Assembly: GCA_022841645.1 (NCBI GenBank)
Contig: JALHRC010000002.1
Coordinates: 36,846-100,845, forward strand
Source: Minisyncoccota bacterium
GTDB taxonomy: Bacteria; Patescibacteriota; Minisyncoccia; Phycocordibacterales; UBA918
Direction: 5' to 3'
Length of the DNA stretch: 64,000 nt
Within the stretch, counting starts at the first letter, position 1. Every line of letters starts with the position of its first letter. Positions 15,738 to 47,052 of this stretch are shown here, one piece after another. A model generated the notes under the pieces. That model saw nothing but the letters and a program-made list of their open reading frames with translations, made no database searches and was not told where the DNA came from. The position numbers and the translations under genes were made by a program.

Positions 15738-17816
15738 GTGCTGCAGGAATCGCTAGTCATGTTTAAAATCTCCACTGAAAAAACACCGGCTGGTGACCAG
15801 CCAAAGGCGATTGAGGCCCTCATAAAGGGTGTTGAAGCTGGACATGTGCACCAGACGCTTTTAGGTGTGACCGGCTCGGGTAAAACTTTTACCGCGGCTA
15901 ATGTCATTCAGCACGTCCAAAAGCCAACGCTCGTGATTGCCCACAATAAAACGCTAGCTGCTCAACTGGCGCAAGAGTACCGCGACTTCTTTCCTGAAAA
16001 TGCTGTGCACTATTTTGTCTCCTACTACGATTACTACCAGCCGGAGGCCTATATGCCGACTTCGGACACCTACATCGAGAAGGAAGCGATGATCAACGAA
16101 GAAATCGATCGTCTTCGTCACGCCTCTACGCAAGCACTGCTTACGCGGCAAGACGTGATCATTGTGGCCTCGGTCTCGTGTATTTACGGTCTTGGTTCAC
16201 CAAAAGAATACATGAAGGTACACCGCAAGATCGAGCGTGGCTACGAAACTACCCGCACTGACATGCTGCGGGTACTGGTTGATATGTACTTTGAACGTAC
16301 GAACGCCGACCTCACCCCTGGCCACTTCCGGGCGGTGGGTAACACGATTGAGATTATGCCTACCAACGAACGCACTATTTATCGCCTTGGCTTTGTGGGT
16401 AACCAAGTCTCTGAGATCACCCGTATCGACGGCATTACGAGGGCCATTATCGACGAGCCAGATGTCTTTTTTCTGTTTCCGGCCAAGCACTTTGTGACGC
16501 CTGAAGACGAACGTAAAGTAGCGATGGCCGATATAAAGCTCGAGCTCGATGAGCAGCTTAAGAAATTTAAAGCAGAAGGGAAGCTTCTCGAGGCCGAACG
16601 GCTACGCCGCCGTACCGAACACGACCTGGCGCTTATCCGCGAGGTGGGGTATTGCAATGGTATCGAAAATTATTCGCGCCATTTTGATCGCCGTCAGCCA
16701 GGTGAGGCACCGTACACGTTGCTGTCCTACTTTCCACACACCAAGGACGGAAAGCCAGACTTTCTCACCATTATCGACGAGTCACACGTCACTATTCCAC
16801 AGATTGGCGGTATGTACGCTGGTGATCGCTCGCGTAAGGATACGCTTGTAGAGCACGGCTTTCGCCTGCCGAGCGCAATCGACAACCGCCCGCTCAATTT
16901 CGCTGAGTTTGAAGAGCGGGTAGGGCAGCGCATTTATACATCAGCCACTCCGGGAAAATACGAATACGCCCAAGCAGAAAAAACTCAGGTGCCCATGGTC
17001 GAGCAAATCATTCGCCCGACCGGGCTTATCGACCCCGAAATCGATATGCGACCCGTCACTGAAAAGGGCACCTACCCGGGACAGATCAAGGATTTTATTG
17101 AAGAGGCAGTAAAGGTAATCAAAGGTGGTGCTCGAGTACTTACCACCACCCTCACCAAAAAAATGGCCGAGGATTTGGCTGAGTTCCTTTCCGAGCGAAA
17201 TATTAAAACCAAGTACATCCACAGCGATGTTGATACTCTCGAGCGCATTGAAATTCTCACCGACTTCCGCAAGGGGGTGTTCGATTGCTTGGTGGGCGTC
17301 AACCTGTTGCGCGAAGGGCTCGATCTCCCCGAAGTGGAACTGGTCGCTATTCTTGATGCCGACAAGGAAGGTTTTTTGCGTAGCCCGACAGCGCTCATCC
17401 AAACTATCGGTCGGGCAGCCCGTAATGTACGTGGGCGCGTGGTGCTGTACGCCGACGAAATGACAGCCGCCCTCACGTACGCAGTGTCAGAAACCAATCG
17501 TCGCCGCTCGCTCCAGCTGGCGTATAACGAGAAGCACGGCATCACCCCCACAACAATTGCTAAGGAAATTAAATCAATTGCTGACCAATTACGCACAGAG
17601 CACGATGAAACAATCGACACGCTCCTTAAGGTTGATATGGCGCTCTTCGAGGAGAATCCAAAGGCAGTAATGGCTGACAAACGTCGGCAAATGGAGGAGG
17701 CGGTAGCAATTTTAGACTTTGAAACCGCCGCTATCATTCGCGATGAGATAAAAGTCCTCGAAGAATCGCAAAAAGGGAAGAAGGGCAGGGGCAAAGTACC
17801 TCGTCGCAAAAAATAA
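15738..17816 (+). CDS. uvrB: Excinuclease ABC subunit B
   Basis: Walker A TGSGKTFTAANVI. The UvrB beta-hairpin region YFVSYYDYYQPEAYMP. Helicase motifs. C-terminal UvrBC interaction segment (DFETAAIIRDEI). Confidence 0.9.
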   Translation: MLQESLVMFKISTEKTPAGDQPKAIEALIKGVEAGHVHQTLLGVTGSGKTFTAANVIQHVQKPTLVIAHNKTLAAQLAQEYRDFFPENAVHYFVSYYDYYQPEAYMPTSDTYIEKEAMINEEIDRLRHASTQALLTRQDVIIVASVSCIYGLGSPKEYMKVHRKIERGYETTRTDMLRVLVDMYFERTNADLTPGHFRAVGNTIEIMPTNERTIYRLGFVGNQVSEITRIDGITRAIIDEPDVFFLFPAKHFVTPEDERKVAMADIKLELDEQLKKFKAEGKLLEAERLRRRTEHDLALIREVGYCNGIENYSRHFDRRQPGEAPYTLLSYFPHTKDGKPDFLTIIDESHVTIPQIGGMYAGDRSRKDTLVEHGFRLPSAIDNRPLNFAEFEERVGQRIYTSATPGKYEYAQAEKTQVPMVEQIIRPTGLIDPEIDMRPVTEKGTYPGQIKDFIEEAVKVIKGGARVLTTTLTKKMAEDLAEFLSERNIKTKYIHSDVDTLERIEILTDFRKGVFDCLVGVNLLREGLDLPEVELVAILDADKEGFLRSPTALIQTIGRAARNVRGRVVLYADEMTAALTYAVSETNRRRSLQLAYNEKHGITPTTIAKEIKSIADQLRTEHDETIDTLLKVDMALFEENPKAVMADKRRQMEEAVAILDFETAAIIRDEIKVLEESQKGKKGRGKVPRRKK

Positions 17817-27476: not shown

Positions 27477-27493
27477 GCGAACAGATGTTCTCT

Positions 27494-27521
27494 GAGCCCG
27501 ATCGCGCGTGCGGTCGGGCTC
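27494..27521 (+). terminator. Hairpin GAGCCCGA-(12 nt)-TCGGGCTC after the preceding ORF; possible terminator
   Basis: 8-bp perfect stem read from the sequence, followed by the moderately T-rich aaactatttgtat. Confidence 0.3.
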
Positions 27522-27604
27522 AAACTATTTGTATATTCAAAAAAGTTCGAACATCGTCCCATACAGCCAGCGGTTACTAAATTCACTACGCTCATAGGTA
27601 CTGC

Positions 27605-27705
27605 TGGACGCGGCTCGTGGTTACTCGCGCCAGGAACGCGCTCGTAACAACACTCCGCCGGTTCGAATCCTCACGCACAGTGCACTGGCACTGTGCTTCG
27701 GGTCC
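27605..27705 (+). pseudogene. tRNA-like remnant. Its acceptor-like 5' end GGACGCG, the 13-nt T-arm match GGTTCGAATCCTC and TCGGGTCCA are identical to the tRNA-Ala(TGC) 3' end, and a 25-nt hairpin insertion splits them
   Basis: 27657-27669 matches the T-arm of the adjacent tRNA-Ala exactly, and 27697-27705 matches its acceptor 3' end. The D-arm and T-stem cannot pair (2 of 5 bp). The intervening GCACAGTGC-ACTG-GCACTGTGC is a perfect 9-bp hairpin. I judge it non-functional. Confidence 0.3.
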
Positions 27706-27710
27706 ACGAA

Positions 27711-27744
27711 CAAAAAACGCACCCTTGTGGGGTGCTGCTTTTTG
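27711..27744. terminator. Bidirectional rho-independent terminator (AAAAAAC GCACCC ttgt GGGTGC TGCTTTTTGT)
   Basis: GC-rich 6-7 bp stem with an A-run on one side and a T-run on the other. Sits immediately 3' of the minus-strand tRNA-Ala(TGC). Confidence 0.55.
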
Positions 27745-27750
27745 TACTCG

Positions 27751-27823
27751 TGGACCCGAGAGGATTCGAACCCCCCGCCTCCTCAGTGCAAATGAGGCGC
27801 TCTACCAAATGAGCTACGGGCCC
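27751..27823 (-). tRNA. tRNA-Ala (anticodon UGC)
   Basis: The reverse complement folds as a canonical 73-nt cloverleaf: acceptor GGGCCCG/CGGGTCC with the G3:U70 alanine identity pair, D-arm GCTC-ATTTGGTA-GAGC, anticodon loop TTTGCAC, T-loop GGTTCGAATCC, discriminator A. CCA is not encoded. Confidence 0.9.
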
Positions 27824-27974
27824 GATGAGAACCGATGTATCATACCGTACAAGGCGTTGTCGTCAAGTCAACAAAACGAGTTGGCATAGTGGTATACGGC
27901 GCTCCACATGTGTTATATAACTGTTTAAATCCATTCCTTTTAGGCACATGTTCGCTTAACTGAGATCTCCAACT

Positions 27975-28298
27975 TTAGATCACGTCGATTTTTTGATTAG
28001 TACGCCTCGTTCTTATCCATATAACCATCAAAGCTATAATTGGTAGGATGTAAAATACATTTACGACAAACTTTCTATCAACGCTACAATCAGGACCAAT
28101 GATGCCATTATATGGGTAAAAAGTTGTGTACGGTTTCCACCCAGGTTCTGTGGAGAAGTTAAGACTCCACTGGGTGTTAGTGAATGAAGTACTCCAGTCT
28201 ATATCTCCATTTGGTAGACGTGGAGGAGAACAGCTGTACGTGAGGGAAGGGAGAATAAGAGGCAAAAGCATAATAATCGCCAAGAAAAGTTTTCTCAT
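27975..28298 (-). CDS. Hypothetical small exported/membrane protein (107 aa) in the low-G+C islet
   Basis: N-terminal signal (LFLAIIMLLPLILPSLTYSCS). C-terminal TM (VFYILPIIALMVIWI). SD-like GGGG before the ATG. The local sequence is AT-rich. Confidence 0.45.
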   Translation of the reverse strand: MRKLFLAIIMLLPLILPSLTYSCSPPRLPNGDIDWSTSFTNTQWSLNFSTEPGWKPYTTFYPYNGIIGPDCSVDRKFVVNVFYILPIIALMVIWIRTRRTNQKIDVI

Positions 28299-28612
28299 GC
28301 CCCAATCCTATCACGGTACTTCTGTATGAGGTCATTACAAAGAACAAAGGTGGTGCCAGCCAAAAACTGATACCACCTTATCGTCTTTCCGATTGTCACC
28401 CTGGCTTGCGCGGTTAACGTAGGGTTAACGGACAGATGCATGCTTACTCGGGCCGTTTTTACCTCTACAGACAATCCGTAGCTACCGAAGCCTCCTGACA
28501 AGTGTCTTTATAATAGCTGCTTCTTGCAATACTTCAACGCTGCCTAACAGCAAACGAGGTTCCAATGCCACCAATGACAACTGGCTGCGATTTGTTAAGA
28601 TACACATAAGAT

Positions 28613-29092
28613 ATGAGTTTAGAAAATCCAGAACGGTTCACACCTGAAAAACAGGAACTTCTTCGACTAGAGGCAACAGGTGATTATGTATTTCACGGAT
28701 CAGATAGTGATATAGAGGAATTTGAACCGCGACAAGCACATAACTTTATTGATGGTGAAAACCATCCTGACGGTGATCCAGCAGTCTTTGCTTCTTCTGT
28801 TGCAGAGTATGCAATATTCATGGCGTTAATAAATAAAACTAATTGCCCTAAGGGATATCGATCAGGAGCAGAGGCTACCAACGGAAGGAGTACTTACAGA
28901 GCAACACGAGATACACTTGATCAGTTACAAAATGATGCAGCGGGGTGGGTCTATGTGTTTGATAGAGGTCAATTTAACAGCCGAAAAAGCGAAGGAATAG
29001 AATATACAAGCTCTACCAATGTAAAGCCCCTAGAGAAAATTAGGGTTTCCAGAGTAGATCTTCCCCCAAATATAGATATCATTGAGGAATAA
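28613..29092 (+). CDS. Hypothetical protein (159 aa) in the low-G+C islet
   Basis: ORF with the islet's AT-rich codon usage. No recognisable motif. Confidence 0.45.
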   Translation: MSLENPERFTPEKQELLRLEATGDYVFHGSDSDIEEFEPRQAHNFIDGENHPDGDPAVFASSVAEYAIFMALINKTNCPKGYRSGAEATNGRSTYRATRDTLDQLQNDAAGWVYVFDRGQFNSRKSEGIEYTSSTNVKPLEKIRVSRVDLPPNIDIIEE

Positions 29093-29190
29093 TAGTTCCA
29101 CTCGTCATTACCGACTGGAAGGCAAAATAGGGCTTATTCTAATCAAACGGTCCTTGCTCTGGCTGTTTTGCTGCACGAGAAACTTAAGTC

Positions 29191-29220
29191 ACCACTGTTA
29201 TCATATATGATAACAGTGGT
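29191..29220. repeat. 30-bp perfect palindrome ACCACTGTTATCATATATGATAACAGTGGT
   Basis: Perfect inverted repeat centred on CATATATG, about 90 nt upstream of tRNA-Ala(GGC). Followed by a second small palindrome CAAAAAACTTTTTTG-like at 29224-29237. Confidence 0.6.
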
Positions 29221-29307
29221 CTCAAAAAACTTTTTGTTAGCTTTGTGCTGGCTGTTAATGCTTTTCAACTGCTGACTTATTTCGTATACTGCCCGCGCCG
29301 TTAGCAA

Positions 29308-29380
29308 GGGCCCTTAGCTCATCCGGTAGAGCGCTTCCATGGCATGGAAGAGGTGAGCGGTTCAAGTCCGCTAGGGTCCA
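29308..29380 (+). tRNA. tRNA-Ala (anticodon GGC)
   Basis: 73-nt cloverleaf: acceptor GGGCCCT/AGGGTCC with G3:U70, D-arm GCTC-ATCCGGTA-GAGC, anticodon loop ATGGCAT, T-arm AGCGG-TTCAAGT-CCGCT, discriminator A. No encoded CCA. Confidence 0.9.
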
Positions 29381-29414
29381 CGAGTATATTTCACGGAGCA
29401 AATATTTGTACAAA

Positions 29415-29435
29415 ATACCCCCCAGGGGGTATAAT
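29415..29435 (+). promoter_or_regulatory. CsoR-type operator (inverted repeat ATACCCCC-CA-GGGGGTAT) overlapping a TATAAT -10 box; a TTGTAC -35-like element lies 18 nt upstream
   Basis: 8-bp perfect arms at 29415-29432. TATAAT at 29430-29435. The csoR-like ATG at 29443 sits 7 nt downstream of the -10, implying a leaderless transcript. GC-rich TACCC...GGGTA pseudo-palindromes are the known CsoR operator type. Confidence 0.5.
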
Positions 29436-29442
29436 TGTGTGT

Positions 29443-29706
29443 ATGAAAGAGTCACACAAAAAGCTAGTTCGTCGCCTCAAAATTATCGAAGGGCAAGTAC
29501 GTGGACTGCAAGGCATGATTGAGAAAGACACATATTGTATTGATGTCATCACGCAGACCTCAGCCATCAAGCAAGCTCTTTCAAATATTGAAAATGTACT
29601 CTTGGAAGAACATCTTTCTCACTGTGTAGTTAATCAGATAAAGTCGGGTAACGTAACAAAGCCAGTCGGAGAAATACTACAGGTGTATCGGTTAAAGCGT
29701 AAATAG
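29443..29706 (+). CDS. csoR: CsoR/RcnR-family metal-sensing transcriptional repressor
   Basis: 87-aa all-helical protein. Pattern KKLVRRLKIIEGQVRGLQGMIEKDTYCIDVITQ...LEEHLSHCV with the Cys...His...Cys copper-ligand triad typical of CsoR. The ORF track start 29344 overlaps the tRNA and is rejected. Confidence 0.8.
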   Translation: MKESHKKLVRRLKIIEGQVRGLQGMIEKDTYCIDVITQTSAIKQALSNIENVLLEEHLSHCVVNQIKSGNVTKPVGEILQVYRLKRK

Positions 29707-29707
29707 T

Positions 29708-30256
29708 ATGGAACATAATCACTCAACATCAAGTGCAATAAAAATTCATCACGTAGCAAAAGTAAGTGTGTGGTCATACTGGCCGATCACTACCATATAC
29801 TTGGTGGCGGCACTTATTTCGCTTTATTCGGTACAATTTCACGCCTACCCTGACTATATGTCACACCTTATGGGCTGGGTTCTGATATTCTTTGGGGTCA
29901 TCAAGCTATCCGATGTAGTTGGATTTGCAGAGGGATTTGCAATGTACGATCCACTGGCAAAACGAAACATCGTTTATGCTCAGGTATACCCTTTCTTAGA
30001 GATCACTCTCGGTATTCTCTTTATACTTCAAGTTCTGATTCTACCTGCTACTCTCATCACTTTGTTTATCTATAGTGCTAGCCTTATCGGCGCTTTACAG
30101 TCAATGGTTAAAAAAGAAACCCTGCACTGCGTGTGTCTCGGGACCTACTTCAAACTTCCGCTCTCGACCGTCACCATTATTGAGGCAATCTTTATGATAA
30201 TGATGTGTCTTTGGATGTTAGCAATGTTTAACAGTATGACCATGATGGTTATGTAA
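29708..30256 (+). CDS. Hypothetical integral membrane protein (4-5 TM helices), co-transcribed with csoR; possibly a DoxX/MauE-like or metal-handling membrane protein
   Basis: Start is 2 nt after the csoR stop. Multiple TM helices. Conserved Cys pair (HCVCLGTYF). Confidence 0.55.
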   Translation: MEHNHSTSSAIKIHHVAKVSVWSYWPITTIYLVAALISLYSVQFHAYPDYMSHLMGWVLIFFGVIKLSDVVGFAEGFAMYDPLAKRNIVYAQVYPFLEITLGILFILQVLILPATLITLFIYSASLIGALQSMVKKETLHCVCLGTYFKLPLSTVTIIEAIFMIMMCLWMLAMFNSMTMMVM

Positions 30257-30267
30257 TAAAATAATTT

Positions 30268-30927
30268 ATGAAAAATCAATCAATCGCAATAATTATTGGA
30301 CTCGGAATCTTAGTCGTTGGTGCCGTAGCGTATAGTTTTGGTGCAAATAAGGATACTGATACCAAAATGGGTATGAATATGGGTGATGACGTACCAGTAG
30401 GGATGCACCGTATGCCAGATGGTTCACTAATGGGTAACGCCCCTGCAAACAACGACATGGGTATGATGGGTGGTATGGATCACTCAATGATGATGGTAAA
30501 GAGTGAACGAGAGTTTCTTAAGGGTATGATTCCACACCACCAAGAAGCAGTTGATACTGCCAAGCAGGTGATCGCTCGTGGCGGTTCAACTCCCGAAATC
30601 AAGAAACTAGCTGAAGACATCATCGTGGCACAAGAGAAAGAGATCGCTATGATGAAGGAGTGGTATCAGGCGTGGTACGGGGAAGCATATGTAGCTGATC
30701 CTAAAGACTACAAACCTATGATGCGTGACCTCTCAACTCTCAGGGGAGCTGCTCTAGATAAGGTCTTTCTCGAAGATATGGTTATGCACCACATGGGAGC
30801 AATAATGATGGCACAAAGTGTACAACCATACATAGAAAATCAAGAAATCACAGATCTGACCAAGGCAATTATGGAGACGCAGGCAGCGGAGATAGAATTA
30901 ATGCGACAGATGCTTAAAACCTTGTAA
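30268..30927 (+). CDS. DUF305-family protein with a Met/His-rich (MxxM-type) N-terminal copper-binding region, secreted or membrane-anchored
   Basis: N-terminal TM/signal. The Met-rich stretch MGMNMGDDVPVGMHRMPDGSLMGNAPANNDMGMMGGMDHSMMM. Paired DUF305-like motifs MIPHHQEAVDTAK and MVMHHMGAIMMAQ. Confidence 0.7.
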   Translation: MKNQSIAIIIGLGILVVGAVAYSFGANKDTDTKMGMNMGDDVPVGMHRMPDGSLMGNAPANNDMGMMGGMDHSMMMVKSEREFLKGMIPHHQEAVDTAKQVIARGGSTPEIKKLAEDIIVAQEKEIAMMKEWYQAWYGEAYVADPKDYKPMMRDLSTLRGAALDKVFLEDMVMHHMGAIMMAQSVQPYIENQEITDLTKAIMETQAAEIELMRQMLKTL

Positions 30928-31053
30928 TGATATGGAGTGAATATTCTTTTACAAAATCTGTTGCAAGGTAGGGCACGCTTGATATGTCACCCAAAACTTC
31001 ATTAGATACTCCCTAAACTGGTTCGATAAATTTCCCCTATAGTCCACCGAGAC

Positions 31054-31095
31054 AAACTAAAGGCACACCCATAACAATGGGTGTGCCTTTAGTTT
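31054..31095. terminator. 19-bp perfect-stem hairpin (AAACTAAAGGCACACCCAT aaca ATGGGTGTGCCTTTAGTTT); possible bidirectional terminator or recombination site
   Basis: Read directly from the sequence. Lies 127 nt after the DUF305 gene. The flanks are only moderately T-rich. Confidence 0.4.
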
Positions 31096-31190
31096 AGTAA
31101 GTGACCAATGTCACTTATGGGTCTCGGTGGAAGCCACTGCGATGTTTTCTGTTCATCATAGAGCAGAAAACCGCAAGGGGGGGTCGACAG

Positions 31191-31232
31191 CACTTAGTAG
31201 AATCAGCACGAAGTGCTTGATTCTACTAAGTG
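31191..31232. repeat. 15-bp perfect inverted repeat CACTTAGTAGAATCA...TGATTCTACTAAGTG enclosing an inner GCAC-gaa-GTGC hairpin
   Basis: Read directly from the sequence. Lies in a non-coding stretch at the right edge of the low-G+C region. Confidence 0.3.
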
Positions 31233-31720
31233 ACTGGTGACCACAAGGACCTGCTAAATTCTGAGCAAAGCGAAACAATATAGCTTGGTGACCGTCAAGA
31301 TCAACATCTTGACTTTCTATGGCTTTGTGTAAACATGTATTTGCTGTACCCATTGAGCGGAGTAGAATCATGGATCCAGAGCTCTTGAAGGACATTCCCC
31401 AAGGTACGTTCCGCATCATTCACTGCATGGGGGATGGTCCGCTCGACTACAGCGCCTGCTGTGTCGGGAACTATAGTGAGAGGCGAGAAGCGATTCGAAT
31501 CGCAAGCGACCACAATCGAGGTCGGCGGGAGGCTCAGAGCTCCAGCACGTACTTTGTCTTTGATGACAAGGGCGCGTGCATCCACTAGGGGACAGGGCAG
31601 TTGTGGGGCCGCAGCATTCGCTGCGGCCCTTGCTAGCTTATGCTACTACATACTGAGCGGCGCAAGAACTAACAATGACGACAGAACTGACACAAAACAC
31701 AATGCTATACTGCTAGGTAT

Positions 31721-33287: not shown

Positions 33288-33614
33288 ATGCAGTTTAAGG
33301 AGTTTGTTCAAAAAGCCGACCTTGTAACAGACTTGTATAAAGATCTGAATAGGGAACAGGGATTCCCACAGTGGTCACTCCAAGACTACGTGCAAGGCTT
33401 TACGGAAGATGTAGGAACACTCTCGCGCCTCACGATGATGAAAGCCGGAGTGCGTAAGCCTGTCGACGACTTGGATGAGAAGCTCAAGCATGAAGTGTGT
33501 GACTGTCTATGGTCAGTTATCAGAGTAGCGCAAGCGCTCAACATTGATCTAGAGACAGAATTCCCCCTGCAAATGGACAAACTTGCTAAACGCATTAAAG
33601 AAGACAAACATTAA
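33288..33614 (+). CDS. MazG-like nucleotide pyrophosphohydrolase domain protein (small all-helical NTP-PPase) inserted in the atp operon
   Basis: 108 aa. The pattern FTEDVGTLSRL...HEVCDCLWSVIRVAQALNIDLETEF resembles MazG/dCTPase-like EExGE and ELADVLxYxxRLAxxLGIDLE motifs. Starts 4 nt after the atpE stop. Confidence 0.55.
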   Translation: MQFKEFVQKADLVTDLYKDLNREQGFPQWSLQDYVQGFTEDVGTLSRLTMMKAGVRKPVDDLDEKLKHEVCDCLWSVIRVAQALNIDLETEFPLQMDKLAKRIKEDKH

Positions 33615-36984: not shown

Positions 36985-37302
36985 ATGAAAGACTTAATTC
37001 CAAGCATAATTGTCCCTTTGGGATTATGGTACAGCTTCTCTAGTGGTGGCGTAGCTTCAAAGTTACAGCAGGGTGGTGTACCGTTAGATTTTCCAGCTAT
37101 ACTTTATTCTTTGGAAATTATAGAGTGGTCTTTCTTGTTTGTTGTCGTCGCCAACATCATAATGTTAGTTTTAGAATATTTTGCTAAAACTAACCCCCGA
37201 TTACAATCTATTTATCAAATAGTCCAACAGGTTTTAGCATTTACTGTTTTCGTTGTATTTATTGGTGGATTCATATTTCTTGCCTATCTTGGCCTTAAGT
37301 AA
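36985..37302 (+). CDS. Small hypothetical membrane protein (105 aa, about 3 TM), first of three AT-rich cassette-like ORFs between atpG and atpD
   Basis: ATG overlaps the atpG stop. Hydrophobic helices. Codon usage is AT-rich, unlike the flanking atp genes. Confidence 0.5.
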   Translation: MKDLIPSIIVPLGLWYSFSSGGVASKLQQGGVPLDFPAILYSLEIIEWSFLFVVVANIIMLVLEYFAKTNPRLQSIYQIVQQVLAFTVFVVFIGGFIFLAYLGLK

Positions 37303-37307
37303 TACTA

Positions 37308-37353
37308 AGTAGCGAGTGCCTTGTTGGGCTTTCGCTACTCAGTGGTACTGAGT
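37308..37353 (+). repeat. 46-nt structured repeat, copy 1 (AGTAGCGAGTGCCTTGTTGGGCTTTCGCTACTCAGTGGTACTGAGT); two adjacent hairpins
   Basis: Hairpin 1 pairs AGTAGCGA with TCGCTACT (8 bp) around a variable loop. Hairpin 2 is ACTCAGT-GGT-ACTGAGT (7 bp). Located 3' of the first cassette ORF. Three near-identical copies are present. Confidence 0.7.
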
Positions 37354-37362
37354 AAATTACGC

Positions 37363-37695
37363 ATGGAAAAGCATTATCAGTTGCTGAGCACATTATTTCT
37401 ACTAGCACTATTTGTGGTGGCTTCGGAATGGTGGATTATTACATCACTCATATATTTTACTTGCCAAAGCGAAGCAGGGAACGCGTGCACCTTGCTTGAA
37501 ACGTACGCTCCAGTTCGCTATCTTGGCCTTGATTCTTGGTTGTACGTTGTCGCCGGTACGCTACCGATTGCTTGGTTGCTACTCTTGCTATCAAAAAAAC
37601 TTACCCGTATTGATACGCTAATTGGCCTCGTTTCTGTTCAAATACTCTTACTAATCACCGTTGCCCTTGTTGAGTTTGTTCAAAAAGCACTGTAG
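37363..37695 (+). CDS. Small hypothetical membrane protein (110 aa), second cassette-like ORF
   Basis: The ORF track start 37321 is a TTG inside the repeat element. The first ATG, at 37363 (MEKHYQLL...), is preferred. About 3 TM helices. Confidence 0.45.
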   Translation: MEKHYQLLSTLFLLALFVVASEWWIITSLIYFTCQSEAGNACTLLETYAPVRYLGLDSWLYVVAGTLPIAWLLLLLSKKLTRIDTLIGLVSVQILLLITVALVEFVQKAL

Positions 37696-37779: not shown

Positions 37780-38214
37780 ATGGATAAGAAATCAACAAAA
37801 AAGTACGACTGGCTAACAAAGTTTCTTATAGATACCGATAGGTTAGATAATCCAAACCTTCCAGTAGCTAAGCAGGAGTACACACCAACACAAAAGTTTT
37901 TTGGGTGGGTACTACTTTTTGTTACTACACATTCATGGTGGATTTCTGCTGCATTTGTATTGTACTTTTGCGAAGGAGCAATAGGTGTTGGATATAGGTG
38001 CACCATTCCAATTGAAGATTGGGCTTTCTTTACCGAATTGTCTACTATCTTCTTTGGTATACCGCTATTATTACCACTATTATTTTACTTTAAATTCTTT
38101 AGTAATTTTTTTAAGAAAATTAATACCCTGACCTTCATTCTTGGCTCGATCTTATTGCTTGTAATTATTTTTAACCTGGTATCAATCTTGTCAAATTACT
38201 TGAACAACCAGTAG
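37780..38214 (+). CDS. Small hypothetical membrane protein (144 aa, about 4 TM), third cassette-like ORF
   Basis: Very AT-rich ORF with hydrophobic helices (FFGWVLLFVTTHSWWISAAFVLYF; IFFGIPLLLPLLFYF; FILGSILLLVIIFNLV). Confidence 0.5.
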   Translation: MDKKSTKKYDWLTKFLIDTDRLDNPNLPVAKQEYTPTQKFFGWVLLFVTTHSWWISAAFVLYFCEGAIGVGYRCTIPIEDWAFFTELSTIFFGIPLLLPLLFYFKFFSNFFKKINTLTFILGSILLLVIIFNLVSILSNYLNNQ

Positions 38215-42358: not shown

Positions 42359-45300
42359 TTAGAGAAGCACAGGCGTGTGGAGCGAGTCATCTGCCGCTTG
42401 CTTGCGCAAGAGCTTTTTCTGCTCGGCGCGGTAGTAGAGCACGGGCACGAGTACCAAGGTCAGAATCATCGCGAAGGTAAGGCCAAACATAATGGCGAAT
42501 GCCAGCGGGCTCCAGAAATCGGAAATCATTGAGAGCGGAATCATACCCACCACCGTCGTGATGGTGGTGAGCATAATCGGACGGAAGCGCGACACGGCTG
42601 CATCAGCCACTTGGTCAATCAGCAGATTGCTTGTGCCTTCAGAAGCTTTGTGGGTAATCATCGAGTCCATCAGAATAATGGCGTGGTTAATGATCACTCC
42701 GGCGAGCGCGATCACCCCAAGCAGGGACGTGAAGGAGAGCGCAAGCCCCGTCGCCGCGAGGCCAAAGAATACACCAATAAGCGAGTACGGAACAATGACA
42801 AGGAGATAGAGTGAATAGCGAATCGAATTGAATGAGAGCACCAATATGGCGAGCATGAGAAGCAATCCGACCACAAGCGCTATGAACATTTCAGTAAACG
42901 ACTGGTTTACGTTCTCAGCCTCGCCGCCATACGACACCTCGACACCACTCGGTAGCTCGAGCTCAGCATTGCGCGCCCTGAATGCACTTACCACTTCACC
43001 GGCGGCAACGCCAGGAACAGTGTAGGCCGAGACAGTCACTTGTCGTTCCTGGTCTTCACGATTAATCGCCGCACTCGCCGGCGCCAGTGACTCCGAAATG
43101 ACACTACTCAGTGGCACCGTAGAGCCCGTAACGGTGGGCACCGTAAGGCTGCGGAGGGCACTGATCGACACGTTTGGTGTGGCCGTGGTGTCCCCGCTTG
43201 TGCGGTCAATTCCAAGCCGCACGACGACGTCAATGTCTTCGCCATTTTGATTAATGGTGGTTGCTTCAACACCAAACACTGCTGTGCGCAGAATACCTCC
43301 CACCGCCGCTGGGGAAACGCCAAGCGCGCTGGCCTTAGCTTTATCAACGGTCAGTACATACTCAGTCGCGTTACTCTTGCTACTGGCTTCCACGTCACGA
43401 GTTCCTTCGATATCGCGCAAAAGCGCTTCTGATCGGTCTGAGACCAAGAGGAGATCAGACAGGTCGTCGCCACTGAGCTTAATGAAGACTGGTGCACCGG
43501 TAGGTGGACCGTTCTGTTGCTCTGTGATGGTAACGAGACCACCCTTGATGGCCTTGAAGTTCTCGCGGAGAGCGGCCGCCAGATCGATACTCGACTCCTC
43601 ACGATCTTCCTTAAGCGCTACGGTAATGTTGGCAAAGCGGCCGCCAGCATCGGTACTGCCGGTAAAGGCAGAACCTGAACCAGCCGTGGTGGTGAATGAT
43701 TCTATATAGTCCTTCTCGTAGAGCACTTCTTCAACGGCGCGTACGACAAGGTCCGTCTCAGTCACCGGTGTACCCTGCACGGTTTCAATTTCGATGTAGA
43801 TTGAGTCAACGTTCTCAGGTGGGAAGAAAATAACTTGGAGTGTACCGGTGATAGGCAGAGCAAAAGCTAGAATAAGACCAGCAAACATGCTCCACAGAAG
43901 CACCCGCTGCTTACGGCGACTTTCGAGGAAGCGTACGAGTTTCTCCCGGTACCACGCCTGTGCCTTCACGTTGTATTCCTCTTGCATTTTCTCAAAGCGG
44001 TTCGGTGTAGTGTTGCTCGTAAGGTAGATAGCAATCAGTGGCACGAGCCCAAGCGCCACAAAGATAGAGGCAAGGAGCACAAAGATAATCGTGAAGGGGA
44101 TAGACGCGATGAATTCACCCGTCACCCCCGAGAGGAAGAAGAGGGGAGCAAAGACGGCAATGGTGGTCATCGTGCCAGCAATCAGTGGCCACGCATACTC
44201 GCGAATTGATTTCTCAGCAGCGTCCATGGCGTTACCCGTTTTCCGCAGACGGGTGTGAATTGCCTCTGTGACCACGATACCTGAGTCAACCAAGATACCC
44301 ACTGAGAGAATGAGCGCAAAGAGGGAAATGAAGTTGATGGTATTGCCCGAAGCGTAGAGGCCAATAAAAGCAATCACAAACGACAGCGGAATAGAAAGGG
44401 CAGCGACAAGCGACTCGCGCCAACCAATCGTAAGGAGAAGACACAGCACCACGAGTGCTACGGTTTCCAGACCAGCCTTAACAAGACCAGCCAAGTCCTT
44501 GCGCACCTGCTCACCTTGGTCAAATACGACCAGTACCTGTGATTCAGCTAAGAGTCCACCTTCTGCTTGTAACTCAGCGAGCTTTTCGTGTACACGATCA
44601 GTTACCACCGTAACGTCAGTGCCCGCGCGTTTAAAAACGGAGACCGTAAGCGAGGTTTCTGATGGGACACCATCCACTGATACACGAGAAATTGACGACT
44701 CTTTGGTGACCGTATCGTTTACCGTCGCAATGTCGCGCACGTACACGGGCTGTCCCGATGCTGACCGAATGGGTGTATTCTCAATATCTTCGATAGTCGA
44801 TAGTTCACCAGAGAAGCGAACAGCATATTCAATACCATCAGTAGAAATAACGCCTACCGGTACATTCAAGTTTGCTTGGCCAAGAGCAGTAGTTACATCA
44901 GACACACCAAGACCAAAAGCGACTAGCGCTTCCTCGCGGATAAGCACTTGGATTTGTCGCTCACGGGTACCCGAAATCTGCACGTCAGAGACACCCGTGA
45001 CACCGGTAAGCTCATCCTTAATCTGTTCACCGAGCGCAGTGAAGGCGGTAGGCGGGAGATTAGCCGAAATTGAAATAATGTTGATCGGCTGATTGGAAAA
45101 ATCAACTTCCGTTACTATCGGGTCATTGGCATCGGTAGGAAGTTCTCCTTTGGCACTATCAACTGCATCACGTAGTTTTTGAATTGATTCATCAATATCA
45201 GCACTGGCAGCAAATTCAACGCTAATACTCGAAACGTCATCACGTGAGGCCGAAGTGAGTGATTCGATGTCATCAAGATTCGCGATCGCATCTTCGAGCT

Positions 45301-45499
45301 TGATGGTGATAAGCTCTTCAATGTCAGAGGCTGAAGCCCCTGGATACACTGTTGAAACAATTCCCACTGGCACAATCACCTCCGGAAAAGATTCCTTGGG
45401 GATGATGTTTACTGCATAGATGCCCAAGCCCACCAGCGTGAGCATGAGAAGCACACTAAACTGCCGCTTCTCTAAAAAGAATAGCCAAAATGAATGCAT
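42359..45499 (-). CDS. RND-family efflux transporter permease (AcrB/AcrD/AcrF-like, 1046 aa)
   Basis: 12-TM topology with two large periplasmic loops. N-terminal region (FFLEKRQFSVLLMLTLVGLGIYAVNIIPKESFPEV) typical of the ACR_tran family. Confidence 0.9.
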   Translation of the reverse strand: MHSFWLFFLEKRQFSVLLMLTLVGLGIYAVNIIPKESFPEVIVPVGIVSTVYPGASASDIEELITIKLEDAIANLDDIESLTSASRDDVSSISVEFAASADIDESIQKLRDAVDSAKGELPTDANDPIVTEVDFSNQPINIISISANLPPTAFTALGEQIKDELTGVTGVSDVQISGTRERQIQVLIREEALVAFGLGVSDVTTALGQANLNVPVGVISTDGIEYAVRFSGELSTIEDIENTPIRSASGQPVYVRDIATVNDTVTKESSISRVSVDGVPSETSLTVSVFKRAGTDVTVVTDRVHEKLAELQAEGGLLAESQVLVVFDQGEQVRKDLAGLVKAGLETVALVVLCLLLTIGWRESLVAALSIPLSFVIAFIGLYASGNTINFISLFALILSVGILVDSGIVVTEAIHTRLRKTGNAMDAAEKSIREYAWPLIAGTMTTIAVFAPLFFLSGVTGEFIASIPFTIIFVLLASIFVALGLVPLIAIYLTSNTTPNRFEKMQEEYNVKAQAWYREKLVRFLESRRKQRVLLWSMFAGLILAFALPITGTLQVIFFPPENVDSIYIEIETVQGTPVTETDLVVRAVEEVLYEKDYIESFTTTAGSGSAFTGSTDAGGRFANITVALKEDREESSIDLAAALRENFKAIKGGLVTITEQQNGPPTGAPVFIKLSGDDLSDLLLVSDRSEALLRDIEGTRDVEASSKSNATEYVLTVDKAKASALGVSPAAVGGILRTAVFGVEATTINQNGEDIDVVVRLGIDRTSGDTTATPNVSISALRSLTVPTVTGSTVPLSSVISESLAPASAAINREDQERQVTVSAYTVPGVAAGEVVSAFRARNAELELPSGVEVSYGGEAENVNQSFTEMFIALVVGLLLMLAILVLSFNSIRYSLYLLVIVPYSLIGVFFGLAATGLALSFTSLLGVIALAGVIINHAIILMDSMITHKASEGTSNLLIDQVADAAVSRFRPIMLTTITTVVGMIPLSMISDFWSPLAFAIMFGLTFAMILTLVLVPVLYYRAEQKKLLRKQAADDSLHTPVLL

Positions 45500-45510
45500 G
45501 GATGTGAGTG

Positions 45511-47052
45511 TTAGTTGCTCTCGGCGGTTACCGCTTGGCCTTCCTTGAGCCCTCGCGCATCTACCACAATCTGATCTTCAAGGGCAATGCCTTCTTCTAC
45601 AATCACACTTTCACCACTGATGGCTCCTAAGGTAATACTTCGTCCGGAAAGCGTATTCTCATCTGTCACTTTGAAAACCACCGGCCCACTGCCGGTCATC
45701 TTTACTGACGAAAGGGGAATCATGATCTTGGTCTCAGTGCTACTGTTTTCATTTATAAAGAGTACGGTGGCCGTGCTGCCGTTTTGTAGCTCTGAATCAT
45801 CGGCCACACTTACTTTGACGGCAATTTTGCCCGTCGTGGGGTCTACGGCGCCAGCAATCGCCGTTACGGTGCCACTGGCTGTACCATCAATGACAACTTC
45901 ATCGCCAATGGCGAGGTTCGCACTCTCCTCCTGATTGATCGCCGTCGCAATTTCCAGACCATTGTTGTTTGCGACGATGGCCGCCGGCTGCCCAGAGCCC
46001 ACGTATTGTCCGGCCTTAAGATAGAGGGCGTTTACCACGCCACTAATCGGCGAGCGAACGATCGTCTTTTGGTAGGCAGCTTGTGCAGCCTGGAGGCTAC
46101 CAAGCGCAATTTTCACCTGCGCATTAGCGAGCGATACGTCAGCAGAGGTGCCGCCAATGGTTGCTCGCGCTAACGCTTCCTCAGCGTCAGCCAAACCAGT
46201 TTTGGCAGCCTTCAGGGCTTGGAGGGTGGTATTGAGTCGCGCACTCTCCGCTAAGAGACCATTAGTAAGAGAATTTGTAGGTACGCCAAATAGCGTATCA
46301 TTTCTATCTGCATTATTAGTTTGAGCAACAAACAACTCTACGAAGGCAATCGTTCGAGTAACCTGTGTCTCAGCCGTGGCGATTTGGTCGTAAAGATTTT
46401 CGTCTGTCAGGCCATTTATCTGGGTCTGCCATTCAGGAAGTAGTTTTTGATAGGCAACACGTTCAGCATTCAAGACTTGAGCGTTACCATCAATGCGTAA
46501 CCCTGGAACAAAGCTATTTGGGTCGGAGAAAAATGGGTCAATTGATTTCACAATGACTGAACTAACATCAGTTAAGCTGGCCCGAACGGCTGCTTTCGCG
46601 GTATTGCGAGCATTCTCAAGCCCCGTTGACGCACCGCGCACCCCACTATCACTCTGCTTGGCTCCCGCAACCGCAGCTTCGTATGAGCCCTCGGCCTGCA
46701 CCAAGGCAGCCCGCTCTGCACTATTCTCGAGGGTAGCCAACACTTGTCCAGCAGCGACCCGAGCACCGATTTCAGTCGTGACTGACACAACGCGACCACC
46801 GGCCTCCGTCTCGAGACGGGCTTCCGAGATGGCGGTTACCGTGCCTACCGCAGAAAATGAGCTCCCTGAGGCAAGTTCACGAACGCTGGCCACCTCAACG
46901 GTAGTCGCAGCAGGCAAAACCTCGACGACCGGCTCACCACCTGGGCCAAAAAATACTGAGGCAGTAAGCCCAAGTAACAGGATAACAGCAGCAATTCTTA
47001 CCCAAGTTTGTCCCGCGTACTGCTTGTAGAGGGACGTCAACCGTTCACGCAT
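45511..47052 (-). CDS. Efflux RND transporter periplasmic adaptor (membrane fusion protein, HlyD-like), unusually long at 513 aa
   Basis: N-terminal TM. Long Ala/Gln-rich coiled-coil (helical-hairpin) segment. C-terminal beta-barrel region (VVIDGTASGTVTAI...GESVIVEEGIALEDQIVV). Lies immediately upstream of the RND permease. Confidence 0.8.
   Translation of the reverse strand: MRERLTSLYKQYAGQTWVRIAAVILLLGLTASVFFGPGGEPVVEVLPAATTVEVASVRELASGSSFSAVGTVTAISEARLETEAGGRVVSVTTEIGARVAAGQVLATLENSAERAALVQAEGSYEAAVAGAKQSDSGVRGASTGLENARNTAKAAVRASLTDVSSVIVKSIDPFFSDPNSFVPGLRIDGNAQVLNAERVAYQKLLPEWQTQINGLTDENLYDQIATAETQVTRTIAFVELFVAQTNNADRNDTLFGVPTNSLTNGLLAESARLNTTLQALKAAKTGLADAEEALARATIGGTSADVSLANAQVKIALGSLQAAQAAYQKTIVRSPISGVVNALYLKAGQYVGSGQPAAIVANNNGLEIATAINQEESANLAIGDEVVIDGTASGTVTAIAGAVDPTTGKIAVKVSVADDSELQNGSTATVLFINENSSTETKIMIPLSSVKMTGSGPVVFKVTDENTLSGRSITLGAISGESVIVEEGIALEDQIVVDARGLKEGQAVTAESN

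Follow-up and report, generated by a model that had tools for sequence, protein, structure and literature searches.

Islands and integrative elements linked to tRNA genes use a tyrosine integrase that crosses over in the T-loop or at the tRNA 3′ end. Integron cassettes and integrative mobile elements exploiting Xer (IMEX; e.g. CTX phage at dif) are small modules without a recombinase of their own, inserted at one defined site, a copy of which stands at the distal end of each module. We analysed a stretch of 64,000 nt (the window) from a Minisyncoccota bacterium (GenBank assembly GCA_022841645.1, contig JALHRC010000002.1, positions 36,846 to 100,845), in which three genes of copper-related families, csoR, a mauE-like gene and a copM-like gene, lie in an AT-rich stretch beside two tRNA-Ala genes. 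The AT-rich stretch is not one island but a mosaic in which three accessory modules are combined. We consider it likely that this is a tRNA-Ala hotspot in a Kaiserbacteria-like genome of the Candidate Phyla Radiation (CPR), the core of which (positions 29382-31047) is a self-contained, non-autonomous copper-detoxification cassette, probably moved by a recombinase supplied in trans.

The tRNA-linked islands are the closest described system. Like them, the cassette directly follows a tRNA gene and is delimited by a repeat of that gene's 3′ end; its composition is atypical, one relative lacks it at the orthologous site, and its neighbours include several tRNA species. It is unlike them in its size (1.67 kb), in having no integrase beside the annotated copies, in the short and degenerate repeat seen in the window, in a distal repeat that overlaps the start of a micro-ORF (a very short open reading frame) and in the serial, interchangeable arrangement of cassettes and non-coding units. 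With IMEX and integron cassettes it shares the way of working described above, including serial arrays (loci L094, L114 and L119; the loci fetched for comparison with the window DNA are labelled L with a number). Unlike in those systems, neither a site of the dif or attC type nor an intI or xer gene was identified, and the data gave no sign of a single-stranded intermediate.

Gene content and predicted function of the copper cassette

In the csoR-copZA operons of Bacillus, Streptomyces and Mycobacterium, a CsoR with a C-H-C ligand triad controls its own expression through a G/C-tract pseudopalindrome in the promoter. The type-2 CsoR operator consensus of Streptomyces (S. lividans) is ATATACCCCTNAGGGGTATAT, i.e. 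TAC-X9-GTA (PMC3902906). In Synechocystis, the Cu(I)-binding protein CopM, which is found in the periplasm and outside the cell, confers copper resistance on its own (PMC4335983). These operons and copMRS/copBAC of Synechocystis are the closest described copper systems: the cassette encodes a CsoR with the C-H-C triad and has a predicted operator of the same type, and its effector is a CopM-type protein.

An earlier sequence-only reading, made from the letters and a list of open reading frames (ORFs), had named the two tRNA-Ala genes and the order csoR, membrane protein, DUF305; ARAGORN, Rfam and Pfam found all of them in the expected places. The csoR product matches solved CsoR structures (PDB 4m1p, E 2.4e-18; 4adz, E 3.6e-17). 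Its predicted Cu(I) ligands C32, H57 and C61 (the x-C-H-C pattern: Cys, then His-x3-Cys) are invariant in 19 homologues and align with the YCID and H..HC motifs of the solved CsoRs. The predicted operator has the form ATACCCCC(N1-2)GGGGGTAT and lies inside TGTACA-17-TATAAT; a CsoR-type palindrome is present upstream of the operon in 21 distinct cassette contexts. The window operator is close to the type-2 consensus but has the form TAC-X10-GTA, i.e. one extra base pair compared with X9. Family match, ligand fingerprint and an operator over its own promoter all assign the predicted protein to the CsoR/RcnR copper-sensing subgroup.

The second gene encodes a MauE-like protein whose CxCxG motif (HCVCLG), located where a predicted membrane helix begins, is the same in 24 homologues, the most distant of them with 26% identity. 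The third product is a Met/His-rich DUF305 protein with an N-terminal hydrophobic signal or anchor, a Met-rich segment and conserved HH motifs. It matches the NCBIfam CopM domain with 102.4 bits (cutoff 90) and the Synechocystis CopM structure PDB 5ffa with E 5.1e-29. It is thus classed with the CopM/DUF305 metallochaperones, and Cu(I) binding and export are predicted. Unlike csoR-copZA, the operon has no gene for the CopA P-type ATPase or the CopZ chaperone. Unlike in Synechocystis, the CopM-like effector would be controlled by CsoR and not by the CopRS two-component system, and its partner is the MauE-like CxC membrane protein.

The homology of the cassette proteins and of the operator makes the following scheme likely. 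CsoR bound to the G/C-tract operator in the promoter spacer would shut the cassette's own promoter. Cu(I) at Cys32/His57/Cys61 would free CsoR from the operator, and this release would turn on csoR, the MauE-like membrane protein and the secreted Met/His-rich CopM-like protein. We infer that the MauE-like protein, with its intramembrane CxC, may act as a Cu(I) or thiol relay by which Cu(I) or reducing equivalents cross the membrane; the CopM-like protein would sequester Cu(I) extracellularly.

An AcrB-type pump of the resistance-nodulation-division (RND) family with a CusB/HlyD-like adaptor is encoded at 42359-47052 (−) of the window, at 14405-19245 of L090 and at 11494-16177 of L097. The pump lies 1-4 kb from the cassette in L090, L095, L096 and L097; in the window the distance is 11 kb, with the atp operon between. 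By analogy, this proximity recalls the pairing of CopM with the RND-type CopBAC in Synechocystis and may be functional or mere synteny.

Boundaries, spread and probable mobility of the cassette

The low G+C noticed in the sequence-only reading is real. The G+C content of 27824-31305 is 0.42, compared with 0.52 ± 0.02 elsewhere in the window (z about −5), and sliding windows show a sharp trough at ~27750-31250 (0.40-0.44 vs 0.52-0.57 on both sides). Against 110 background windows of 1.5 kb (mean G+C 0.520 ± 0.021), the AT-rich windows reach a G+C z of −5.0 and a tetranucleotide-distance z of +5.6. Part by part, the G+C content is 0.419 (27824-29307), 0.417 (29382-31047) and 0.461 (31048-31305); it is 0.542 in the left flank and 0.538 in the atp genes. 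The G+C content at third codon positions (GC3) is 0.26-0.46 in the genes of the stretch vs 0.62-0.68 in uvrC, ddl, atpA, atpB, atpD and atpG.

The left junction is the 3′ end of tRNA-Ala(GGC), TAGGGTCCAC, at 29372-29381. The search for a direct repeat of this end at the right edge, which the sequence-only reading had suggested, found an att-like copy: with a slash marking the junction, the repeat reads TAGGGTCCAC/GAG at 29372-29384 and TATAGTCCAC/CGAG at 31038-31051. The longer junction sequences are TAGGGTCCAC/GAGTATATTT (from 29372) and TATAGTCCAC/CGAGACAAAC (from 31038). In L094 a perfect 11-nt repeat, GTCCACGAGTA, stands at both junctions. In an alignment of the right ends of eight copies, identity is near-total through TATAGTCCAC and gone in the next column; in the sub-lineage of the window's cassette homology always ends at ..TA(G/T)(A/G)GTCCAC. 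Just right of the left junction, the motif (T/C/A)ATATTTT(T)AC.. is found wherever this sub-lineage occurs. We read the cassette as a discrete non-autonomous mobile unit, inserted right after the tRNA-Ala(GGC) 3′ end at ..GTCCAC/GAG and ending in a degenerate copy of that end.

The left neighbours of the sub-lineage vary: tRNA-Ala(GGC) in four different contexts (the window, L094, L096 and L097), a copy of the right-end block in L090 and the end of a non-coding unit in L114. Operons of other sub-lineages lie directly behind tRNA-Trp(CCA) (L111), tRNA-Ser(GGA) (L098) or a truncated tRNA (L113), and L104 and L109 have the L111 linker behind a tRNA-like ..GCCA end. In at least 7 of the 21 distinct upstream contexts, a tRNA gene, either called or visible, ends within ~180 nt. 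CPR genomes carry roughly 45 tRNA genes per megabase; at this density the chance expectation for such tRNA-linked contexts is well under 1%.

An empty site was found in L165. This relative has a Ddl protein 76% identical to that of the window, the same left synteny and the same divergent pair, tRNA-Ala(TGC) (−) and tRNA-Ala(GGC) (+), after ddl; its tRNA-Ala(GGC) is followed directly by AGTACAAAAATGAGC... and carries no cassette. The order 3′ of this tRNA is AGTACAAAAATGAGCGCAC..., a terminator and TCGTGGACCC... The same sequence stands behind the right end of the cassette in L094; because the 3′ sequences agree, L094 can be described as an L165-type site with an insertion between ..GGGTCCACG and AGTACAAAAA...

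The genomic position of the cassette also varies. In the window it lies upstream of atpB, while in L097 it lies on the far side of the atp operon, in the order atpB...atpD, tRNA-Ala(GGC), cassette, unit and homologues of the window from 41.1 kb onward. In L090 the cassette stands behind a methylase/ResIII/UvrD cluster, and in L094 behind another gene set. These positions and the empty site support horizontal acquisition of the cassette at a tRNA 3′ end; to this extent the sequence-only reading, which had proposed acquisition at a tRNA gene, was right.

The cassette is far better conserved than its surroundings. It recurs in further Paceibacteria/Kaiserbacteria-like contigs and matches L094 with 90% identity (window 29306-31056), L096 with 92% (29307-31198), L097 with 88% (29308-31201), L095, the contig of which begins within the cassette, with 96% (29972-31047), and the L090 group with 81% (29406-31047). 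Other window-matching genes on L095, L096, L097 and L090 (atp genes and homologues of the 41-48 kb region) are only 65-77% identical, and beyond the cassette L094 has only tRNA-like pieces in common with the window. Between the window and L097, identity at third codon positions is 0.91 in the DUF305 gene, 0.69 in csoR and 0.60 in mauE, vs 0.36-0.49 in atpB, atpA, atpG and atpD; by this measure, the cassette is much younger than the backbone and internally mosaic. The uneven divergence (DUF305 vs MauE-like) suggests a recombination breakpoint inside the cassette. More than 100 clusters in Parcubacteria/Paceibacteria data are 66-96% identical to the DUF305 protein (about 100 at ≥70%), while Ddl, with about 12 clusters at ≥72%, has far fewer close relatives. 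Together, the data support the view that the cassette spread among Paceibacteria more recently than the host genomes diverged.

It could be argued that nothing was transferred and that selection on membrane and secreted proteins keeps a native region AT-rich and conserved. The cassette does encode one membrane and one secreted protein, and in four relatives it lies near the same RND/PMM block. Yet synonymous-site identity far exceeds that of the atp genes, positions vary among loci and the orthologous site of L165 is empty. Moreover, the cassette G+C is 0.41-0.44 in all hosts, although the rest of the loci ranges from 0.375 (L094) to 0.517 (window); since the cassette is thus below its host here and above its host in L094, low G+C is not purely selective. 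We regard the explanation by selection as barely tenable.

As to the mechanism, no integrase, transposase or recombinase family was detected among the window ORFs scanned, and no integrase or remnant of one was seen beside cassette copies with annotated flanking genes (L090-L094, L083). With no integrase in either place, the cassette looks non-autonomous, and the idea that the element once had an integrase and has since lost it was not borne out. Two hallmarks of a classical tRNA-integrated island are observed, a tRNA 3′ end with a distal repeat and presence/absence accompanied by deviating composition; the internal integrase is missing. An integron gene cassette, i.e. a promoterless ORF followed by an attC imperfect palindrome with intI and attI nearby, does not match, as the copper cassette has its own promoter, regulator and operator, a right-end block that does not fold and no integrase. 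The most likely route would be site-specific recombination at tRNA (or tRNA-like) 3′ ends by a recombinase supplied in trans. Such a recombinase would produce a circular junction ...CCCCTATAGTCCAC/GAGTATATTTCACGG and an empty site ...GCTAGGGTCCAC/CGAGACAAACTAAAGG.

Homologous recombination after DNA uptake would require no site-specific recombinase: the near-universal tRNA-Ala(GGC) sequence would be the left arm and conserved trailer or unit sequence the right arm. A suitable left arm exists, as tRNA-Ala(GGC) is 96% identical between the window and L165, but the cassette also stands behind tRNA-Ser, tRNA-Trp, a unit end and a non-tRNA block and would need a new left arm each time. On the right, the ~100 nt behind the L094 cassette are by eye very similar to L165 although the contigs differ in G+C (0.386 vs 0.496); against this, identity among the window, L096 and L097 collapses right behind GTCCAC, and the trailer unit, with its divergence and many compensatory changes, is ill-suited as a homology arm. 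The mosaic interior of the cassette, a DprA-type gene on a related contig and the failure to find an integrase in the searched data fit homologous recombination; an identical junction motif in all members of the sub-lineage does not. We consider this route possible but rather unlikely. A recombinase acting in trans is favoured because the boundary base is constant in every comparison while the left neighbour varies.

Several observations weigh against the proposed mobile copper cassette. Copper regulation and copper binding are assigned to its products by homology alone. The flanking repeat in the window, GTCCAC plus (C)GAG, is short and imperfect, and distant operons (L100, L105, L120, L123, L128, L131, L143 and L151) are not tRNA-adjacent. 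Neither a recombinase nor a circular junction nor an excision product was observed, and no integrase was found on the annotated cassette contigs or next to the units. The cassette is near one and the same PMM/RND block in four relatives, and its distribution may for this reason be partly vertical, with allelic replacement. Finally, no strain-level presence/absence was seen: Logan contigs with an exact Ddl, AtpB, DUF305 or MauE-like protein are identical to the window (100%; L086 99.9%), and all 100%-identical ones show one arrangement.

Two further candidates were rejected. What might be taken for strain-level empty and filled alleles are contigs (near-)identical to the window that merely break inside tRNAs, and the apparently differing AtpB neighbours are just differing gene calls. 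A phage vector is not indicated, as viral contigs gave no matches for the DUF305 protein, the conserved right-end block or the unit core.

The right end of the cassette is a 77-nt block (30970-31047) that is near-invariant in eight copies, with homology ending right behind GTCCAC. The block is probably a micro-ORF on the minus strand: its variable columns are distributed 15/10/4 over codon positions 3/1/2 of the minus-strand frame, and L103 retains the peptide despite many synonymous changes. The 5′ end of the micro-ORF overlaps the right junction motif TATAGTCCAC (31038-31047). In the window the peptide reads (V/M)DYRGNLSNQFREYLMKFWVTYQACPTLQQIL, with the segment ..MKFWVTYQACPTLQQIL; the pattern in all copies is (V/M)DYRGNL(S/P)NQF(R/K)EYLMKFWVTYQ(A/S)CPTLQ(Q/K)IL. 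An internal ATG at 31002 lies 7 nt after AGGGAG/AAGGAG, so that a 17-aa product is possible. Among 1.8 billion proteins the only relative is one 57-aa representative. The micro-ORF is confined to the sub-lineage of the window's cassette; in L090 copies are present on both sides of the cassette.

Since the 77-nt block starts with GGGC and ends with TAGTCCA, a decayed tRNA-Ala (a pseudo-tRNA serving as attP) was considered and rejected. The block folds no better than its shuffled versions (z +0.3 to +1.7), neither ARAGORN nor Rfam gave a tRNA-model match, and the resemblance to a tRNA end is limited to the final 10 nt.

Table 1. Features of the AT-rich stretch and related loci (window coordinates unless a locus is named)
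Feature	Coordinates	Strand	Description and support
Trailer of tRNA-Ala(TGC)	27660-27749	−	Inverted-repeat search, terminator scan
tRNA-Ala(TGC)	27750-27823	−	ARAGORN; Rfam 64.1 bits
tRNA-Ala(TGC) promoter region	27824-27890	−	TTGACG-16-TATGAT, promoter scan
Low-G+C part 1, variable spacer	27891-29307		Between divergent tRNA-Ala genes; two accessory ORFs; G+C 0.419, GC3 0.26-0.40
107-aa signal/transmembrane protein	27975-28298	−	N-terminal signal-peptide-like hydrophobic stretch
159-aa conserved hypothetical protein	28613-29092	+	Without signal-like hydrophobic start
Palindromic terminator	29191-29220		In spacer
tRNA-Ala(GGC) promoter	29262-29290		In spacer
tRNA-Ala(GGC)	29308-29381	+	ARAGORN; Rfam 58.2 bits
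Low-G+C part 2, cassette (1.67 kb)	29382-31047		Promoter with predicted CsoR operator, csoR, mauE-like, copM-like, convergent micro-ORF
Left cassette end	29382-29442	+	GAGTATATTTCACGGAGCAAATA, then promoter
Cassette promoter	29407-29435	+	TGTACA-17-TATAAT, 10/12 matches, promoter scan
Predicted CsoR operator ATACCCCCCAGGGGGTAT	29415-29432		18-nt pseudopalindrome in promoter spacer
csoR	29443-29706	+	PF02583, E 1.4e-26, 93 bits (cutoff 22.8)
MauE-like multi-pass membrane protein	29708-30256	+	PF07291, E 1.2e-10
DUF305, CopM-like	30268-30927	+	PF03713, E 5.5e-35, 121 bits (cutoff 27)
Convergent micro-ORF	30949-31047	−	32 codons from GTG 31047, or 17 codons from ATG 31002
Low-G+C part 3	31042-31306		Non-coding multi-hairpin unit of a kind found behind many tRNA genes in these bacteria
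Structured non-coding tRNA-trailer unit	31042-31250	+	RNAalifold, covariation counts, profile
Truncated second unit	31249-31313	+	Terminator-like hairpin 31294-31313 (terminator scan); right end of low-G+C stretch
Further unit copies	27660-27749 (−); L001 11782-12330; L165 12012-12208 (−), 17189-17459; L119 8758-9113 (−); L115 4391-4560

The variable spacer and the flanks

The sequence-only reading had taken 27830-31300 for one 3.5-kb tRNA-integrated island, framed by the two tRNA-Ala genes and with its integrase decayed. The evenly low G+C (~0.42) over the whole stretch and the tRNA genes at or near both ends of its left part would agree with this, but the parts behave separately. tRNA-Ala(GGC) lies not at an outer edge but inside the stretch, at the left edge of the copper cassette. 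The left 1.4 kb is situated 5′ of both tRNA genes, between their promoters, and not at a tRNA 3′ end; the boundaries of the cassette at 29307/29382 and 31047 contradict a single element, and no integrase fragment was detected. Comparison with relatives, which the same reading had asked for, showed absence of the cassette at the tRNA-Ala(GGC) of L165. None of the fetched cassette-carrying loci has the spacer genes alongside the cassette. We consider a single island very unlikely.

The spacer is probably a separate variable segment, also acquired. The region 27824-27890 is the final segment common with relatives (L164 and L165, compared by eye) before the spacer; in L165 the two tRNA-Ala genes are 4.8 kb apart with different genes in the interval, and the L164 interval also holds different genes. 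The 159-aa protein is one of a family of conserved hypothetical proteins in Paceibacteria (closest relatives 81-63% identical), with homologues in unrelated neighbourhoods on contigs with G+C of 0.40-0.42; its contexts, followed as a path to an empty site, gave unrelated loci only. Both spacer ORFs had been described as secreted in the sequence-only reading, which holds for the signal-peptide-like start of the 107-aa ORF and not for the 159-aa ORF. In L162 (1-4935, low-G+C Paceibacteria) a 159-aa homologue lies ~5 kb from genes for a CopA-type ATPase, HMA-DsbD, a cupredoxin-like protein and a multicopper oxidase; this proximity may be a coincidence.

The order tRNA(TGC), spacer, tRNA(GGC) is taken solely from the 109-kb source contig, because short-read contigs break inside the tRNAs. 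All such contigs from 12 runs of one study (SRR28154518-29) end inside the two tRNA-Ala genes: L081 and L082 end at window 27802 and 27779, while L083 and L167-L169 start at 29352. These breaks are likely caused by k-mers common to other community members. A metagenomic mis-join at conserved tRNA-Ala sequence, bringing in chiefly 27824-29307 from a lower-G+C organism, would also leave every short-read contig broken in a tRNA and no independent contig examined spanning either one. However, at least six samples (L083-L088) have an unbroken, 100% identical sequence from the cassette to atpB, the divergent tRNA pair recurs in L165 on either side of variable genes, and the 159-aa protein is recorded on the source contig and three others. 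We consider a mis-join very unlikely.

To the left of the AT-rich stretch lie uvrB, genes for a large Big_13 protein and a histidine kinase, uvrA, uvrC and ddl, and to its right the ATP synthase operon. Among species representatives the best match of Ddl is a Candidatus Kaiserbacteria metagenome-assembled genome (58% identity); in a larger protein collection the closest sequences are 83-72% identical, after which identity drops to about 60%. On this basis the window is assigned to a Kaiserbacteria-like member of the Paceibacteria (CPR/Patescibacteria). tRNA-Ala(TGC) is kept beside ddl in relatives and is 97.6% identical in L164. Its trailer contains a bidirectional terminator hairpin (27719-27735), behind which stand the tRNA 3′ end in inverted form (TCGTGGACCC), a short hairpin and GAGGATTCGAACC, in this order; the layout recurs in L001, L164 and L165. 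A hidden tmRNA or tRNA-like gene at 27477-27709 (+) was rejected: ARAGORN and Rfam were negative, and in the window copy no T-stem can form.

A second trough of equal depth (36984-38272, G+C 0.39) splits atpG from atpD, which are separated by 72 bp in L097. It holds three small predicted membrane-protein ORFs (36985-37302, 37321-37695 and 37780-38214), each trailed by the same 42-nt two-hairpin repeat (at 37312, 37705 and 38224), GCGAGTGCCTTnnnGGGCTTTCGCyACTCAGTGGTACTGAGT. No further copies of the repeat were found in the rest of the window or in 166 loci. The segment resembles an ORF-plus-repeat cassette array. Between atpE and atpF, where L097 has only ~180 nt, a MazG-like ORF (33288-33614, GC3 0.50) looks like a third small insertion in the ATP synthase operon.

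Structured units behind tRNA genes

The strong hairpins to the right of the cassette, a 19-bp perfect stem (31054-31072/31077-31095) and a 15-bp inverted repeat (31191-31205/31218-31232), are exactly where the sequence-only reading had placed them. They are not the right side of an island, however, and belong to a conserved structured unit that is also found behind other tRNA genes. In this unit TCCACCGAGAC pairs with GTCTCGGTGGA to form a closing helix around the 19-bp hairpin (31054-31095) and one of 9 bp; then come a third hairpin (~31146-31173), the core GGGGTCGA at 31180, a long hairpin that includes 31191-31232 and GTGACCAC. The truncated second unit has 89% identity to L165 17324-17379, part of the unit behind the L165 tRNA-Ala(GGC).

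The alignment of the unit from the window, L096 and L097 shows modest identity and pervasive compensatory change. RNAalifold on the three sequences gave 97 pairs, 33 of them with double changes. When the count is limited to the 76 pairs beyond the micro-ORF, 97.8% of the cells are paired, and 33 double-change pairs compare with 11.6 ± 2.7 in shuffles (0/500 reached the observed count) and 0-5 in slid controls. Several G.U pairs are valid on the + strand only. MAFFT left the outer helices out of register, and an nhmmer profile was used for the search of units. The profile detected ~17 distinct units, always on the tRNA strand, and among the matches listed at least seven lie 54-242 nt downstream of tRNA-Ala, tRNA-Ser, tRNA-His or tRNA-Glu genes.

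The same architecture is present behind genuine tRNAs for Ala (window, L001, L165), Ser (L115), His (L119, L150), Gln (L160) and Glu (L144, L151). A terminator-like hairpin is followed by the complement of the tRNA acceptor 3′ strand, a small hairpin, the T-arm complement (..GGAATCGAAAG), a hairpin, GGGGTCG.., the long hairpin, ..GTGACC and a direct copy of 15-17 of the 17 final tRNA nucleotides. Units are often in tandem. Like repetitive extragenic palindromes (REPs) and repeats resembling miniature inverted-repeat transposable elements (MITEs), they are hairpin-rich, intergenic and repeated, with several copies per genome. Unlike these repeats, they are tied to tRNA 3′ ends, have the core GGGGTCG ... 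GTGACC and form their outer helix from inverted and direct copies of the T-arm/acceptor sequence of the neighbouring tRNA.

Rfam 15 gave only chance-level hairpin hits for the unit (E > 0.2), and none in L001, L094, L096 and L097; no integrase was found beside the L119 units. A hammerhead or other known ribozyme was rejected, as the core motifs misfit by inspection and no Rfam hit was obtained. A complement to mature tRNA resembling a primer-binding site was also rejected, since the complement fits the genomic trailer ..CCACGA and not ..CCACCA. The unit may be an RNA, a recombination structure of single-stranded DNA or a product of palindrome-correcting template switching.

In L114 a unit stands before the cassette, in the window behind it; because the order differs, units and cassette are separate modules with one common junction motif. 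We tentatively suggest, as a conjecture more doubtful than not, that CPR/Paceibacteria have a hitherto unrecognised tRNA-anchored cassette system, in which small gene cassettes (here a complete copper sensor-effector unit) and structured non-coding units of ~200 nt are inserted serially after tRNA 3′ ends by a recombinase encoded elsewhere or in a nucleic-acid-guided manner. Each module of such a system would bear a copy of the tRNA 3′ end on its far side; in the guided variant, the inverted and direct tRNA-end copies of the unit would serve as the recognition element.

The units combine strong covariation with the lack of an Rfam family and may represent a new structured RNA or else a trace left by an insertion machinery. 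In the sub-lineage of the window's cassette there is one junction motif, TA(G/T)(A/G)GTCCAC, which resembles a tRNA 3′ end, and no integrase beside the annotated copies. Within 1.7 kb, the cassette holds a complete predicted metal-stress module (sensor, operator, membrane component and extracellular copper binder), nearly unchanged across lineages whose housekeeping genes show saturated synonymous divergence. CPR bacteria have tiny genomes, and their gene exchange is poorly documented; the cassette offers a concrete case of non-autonomous gene mobility among them and may serve as a marker of copper exposure in their habitats.

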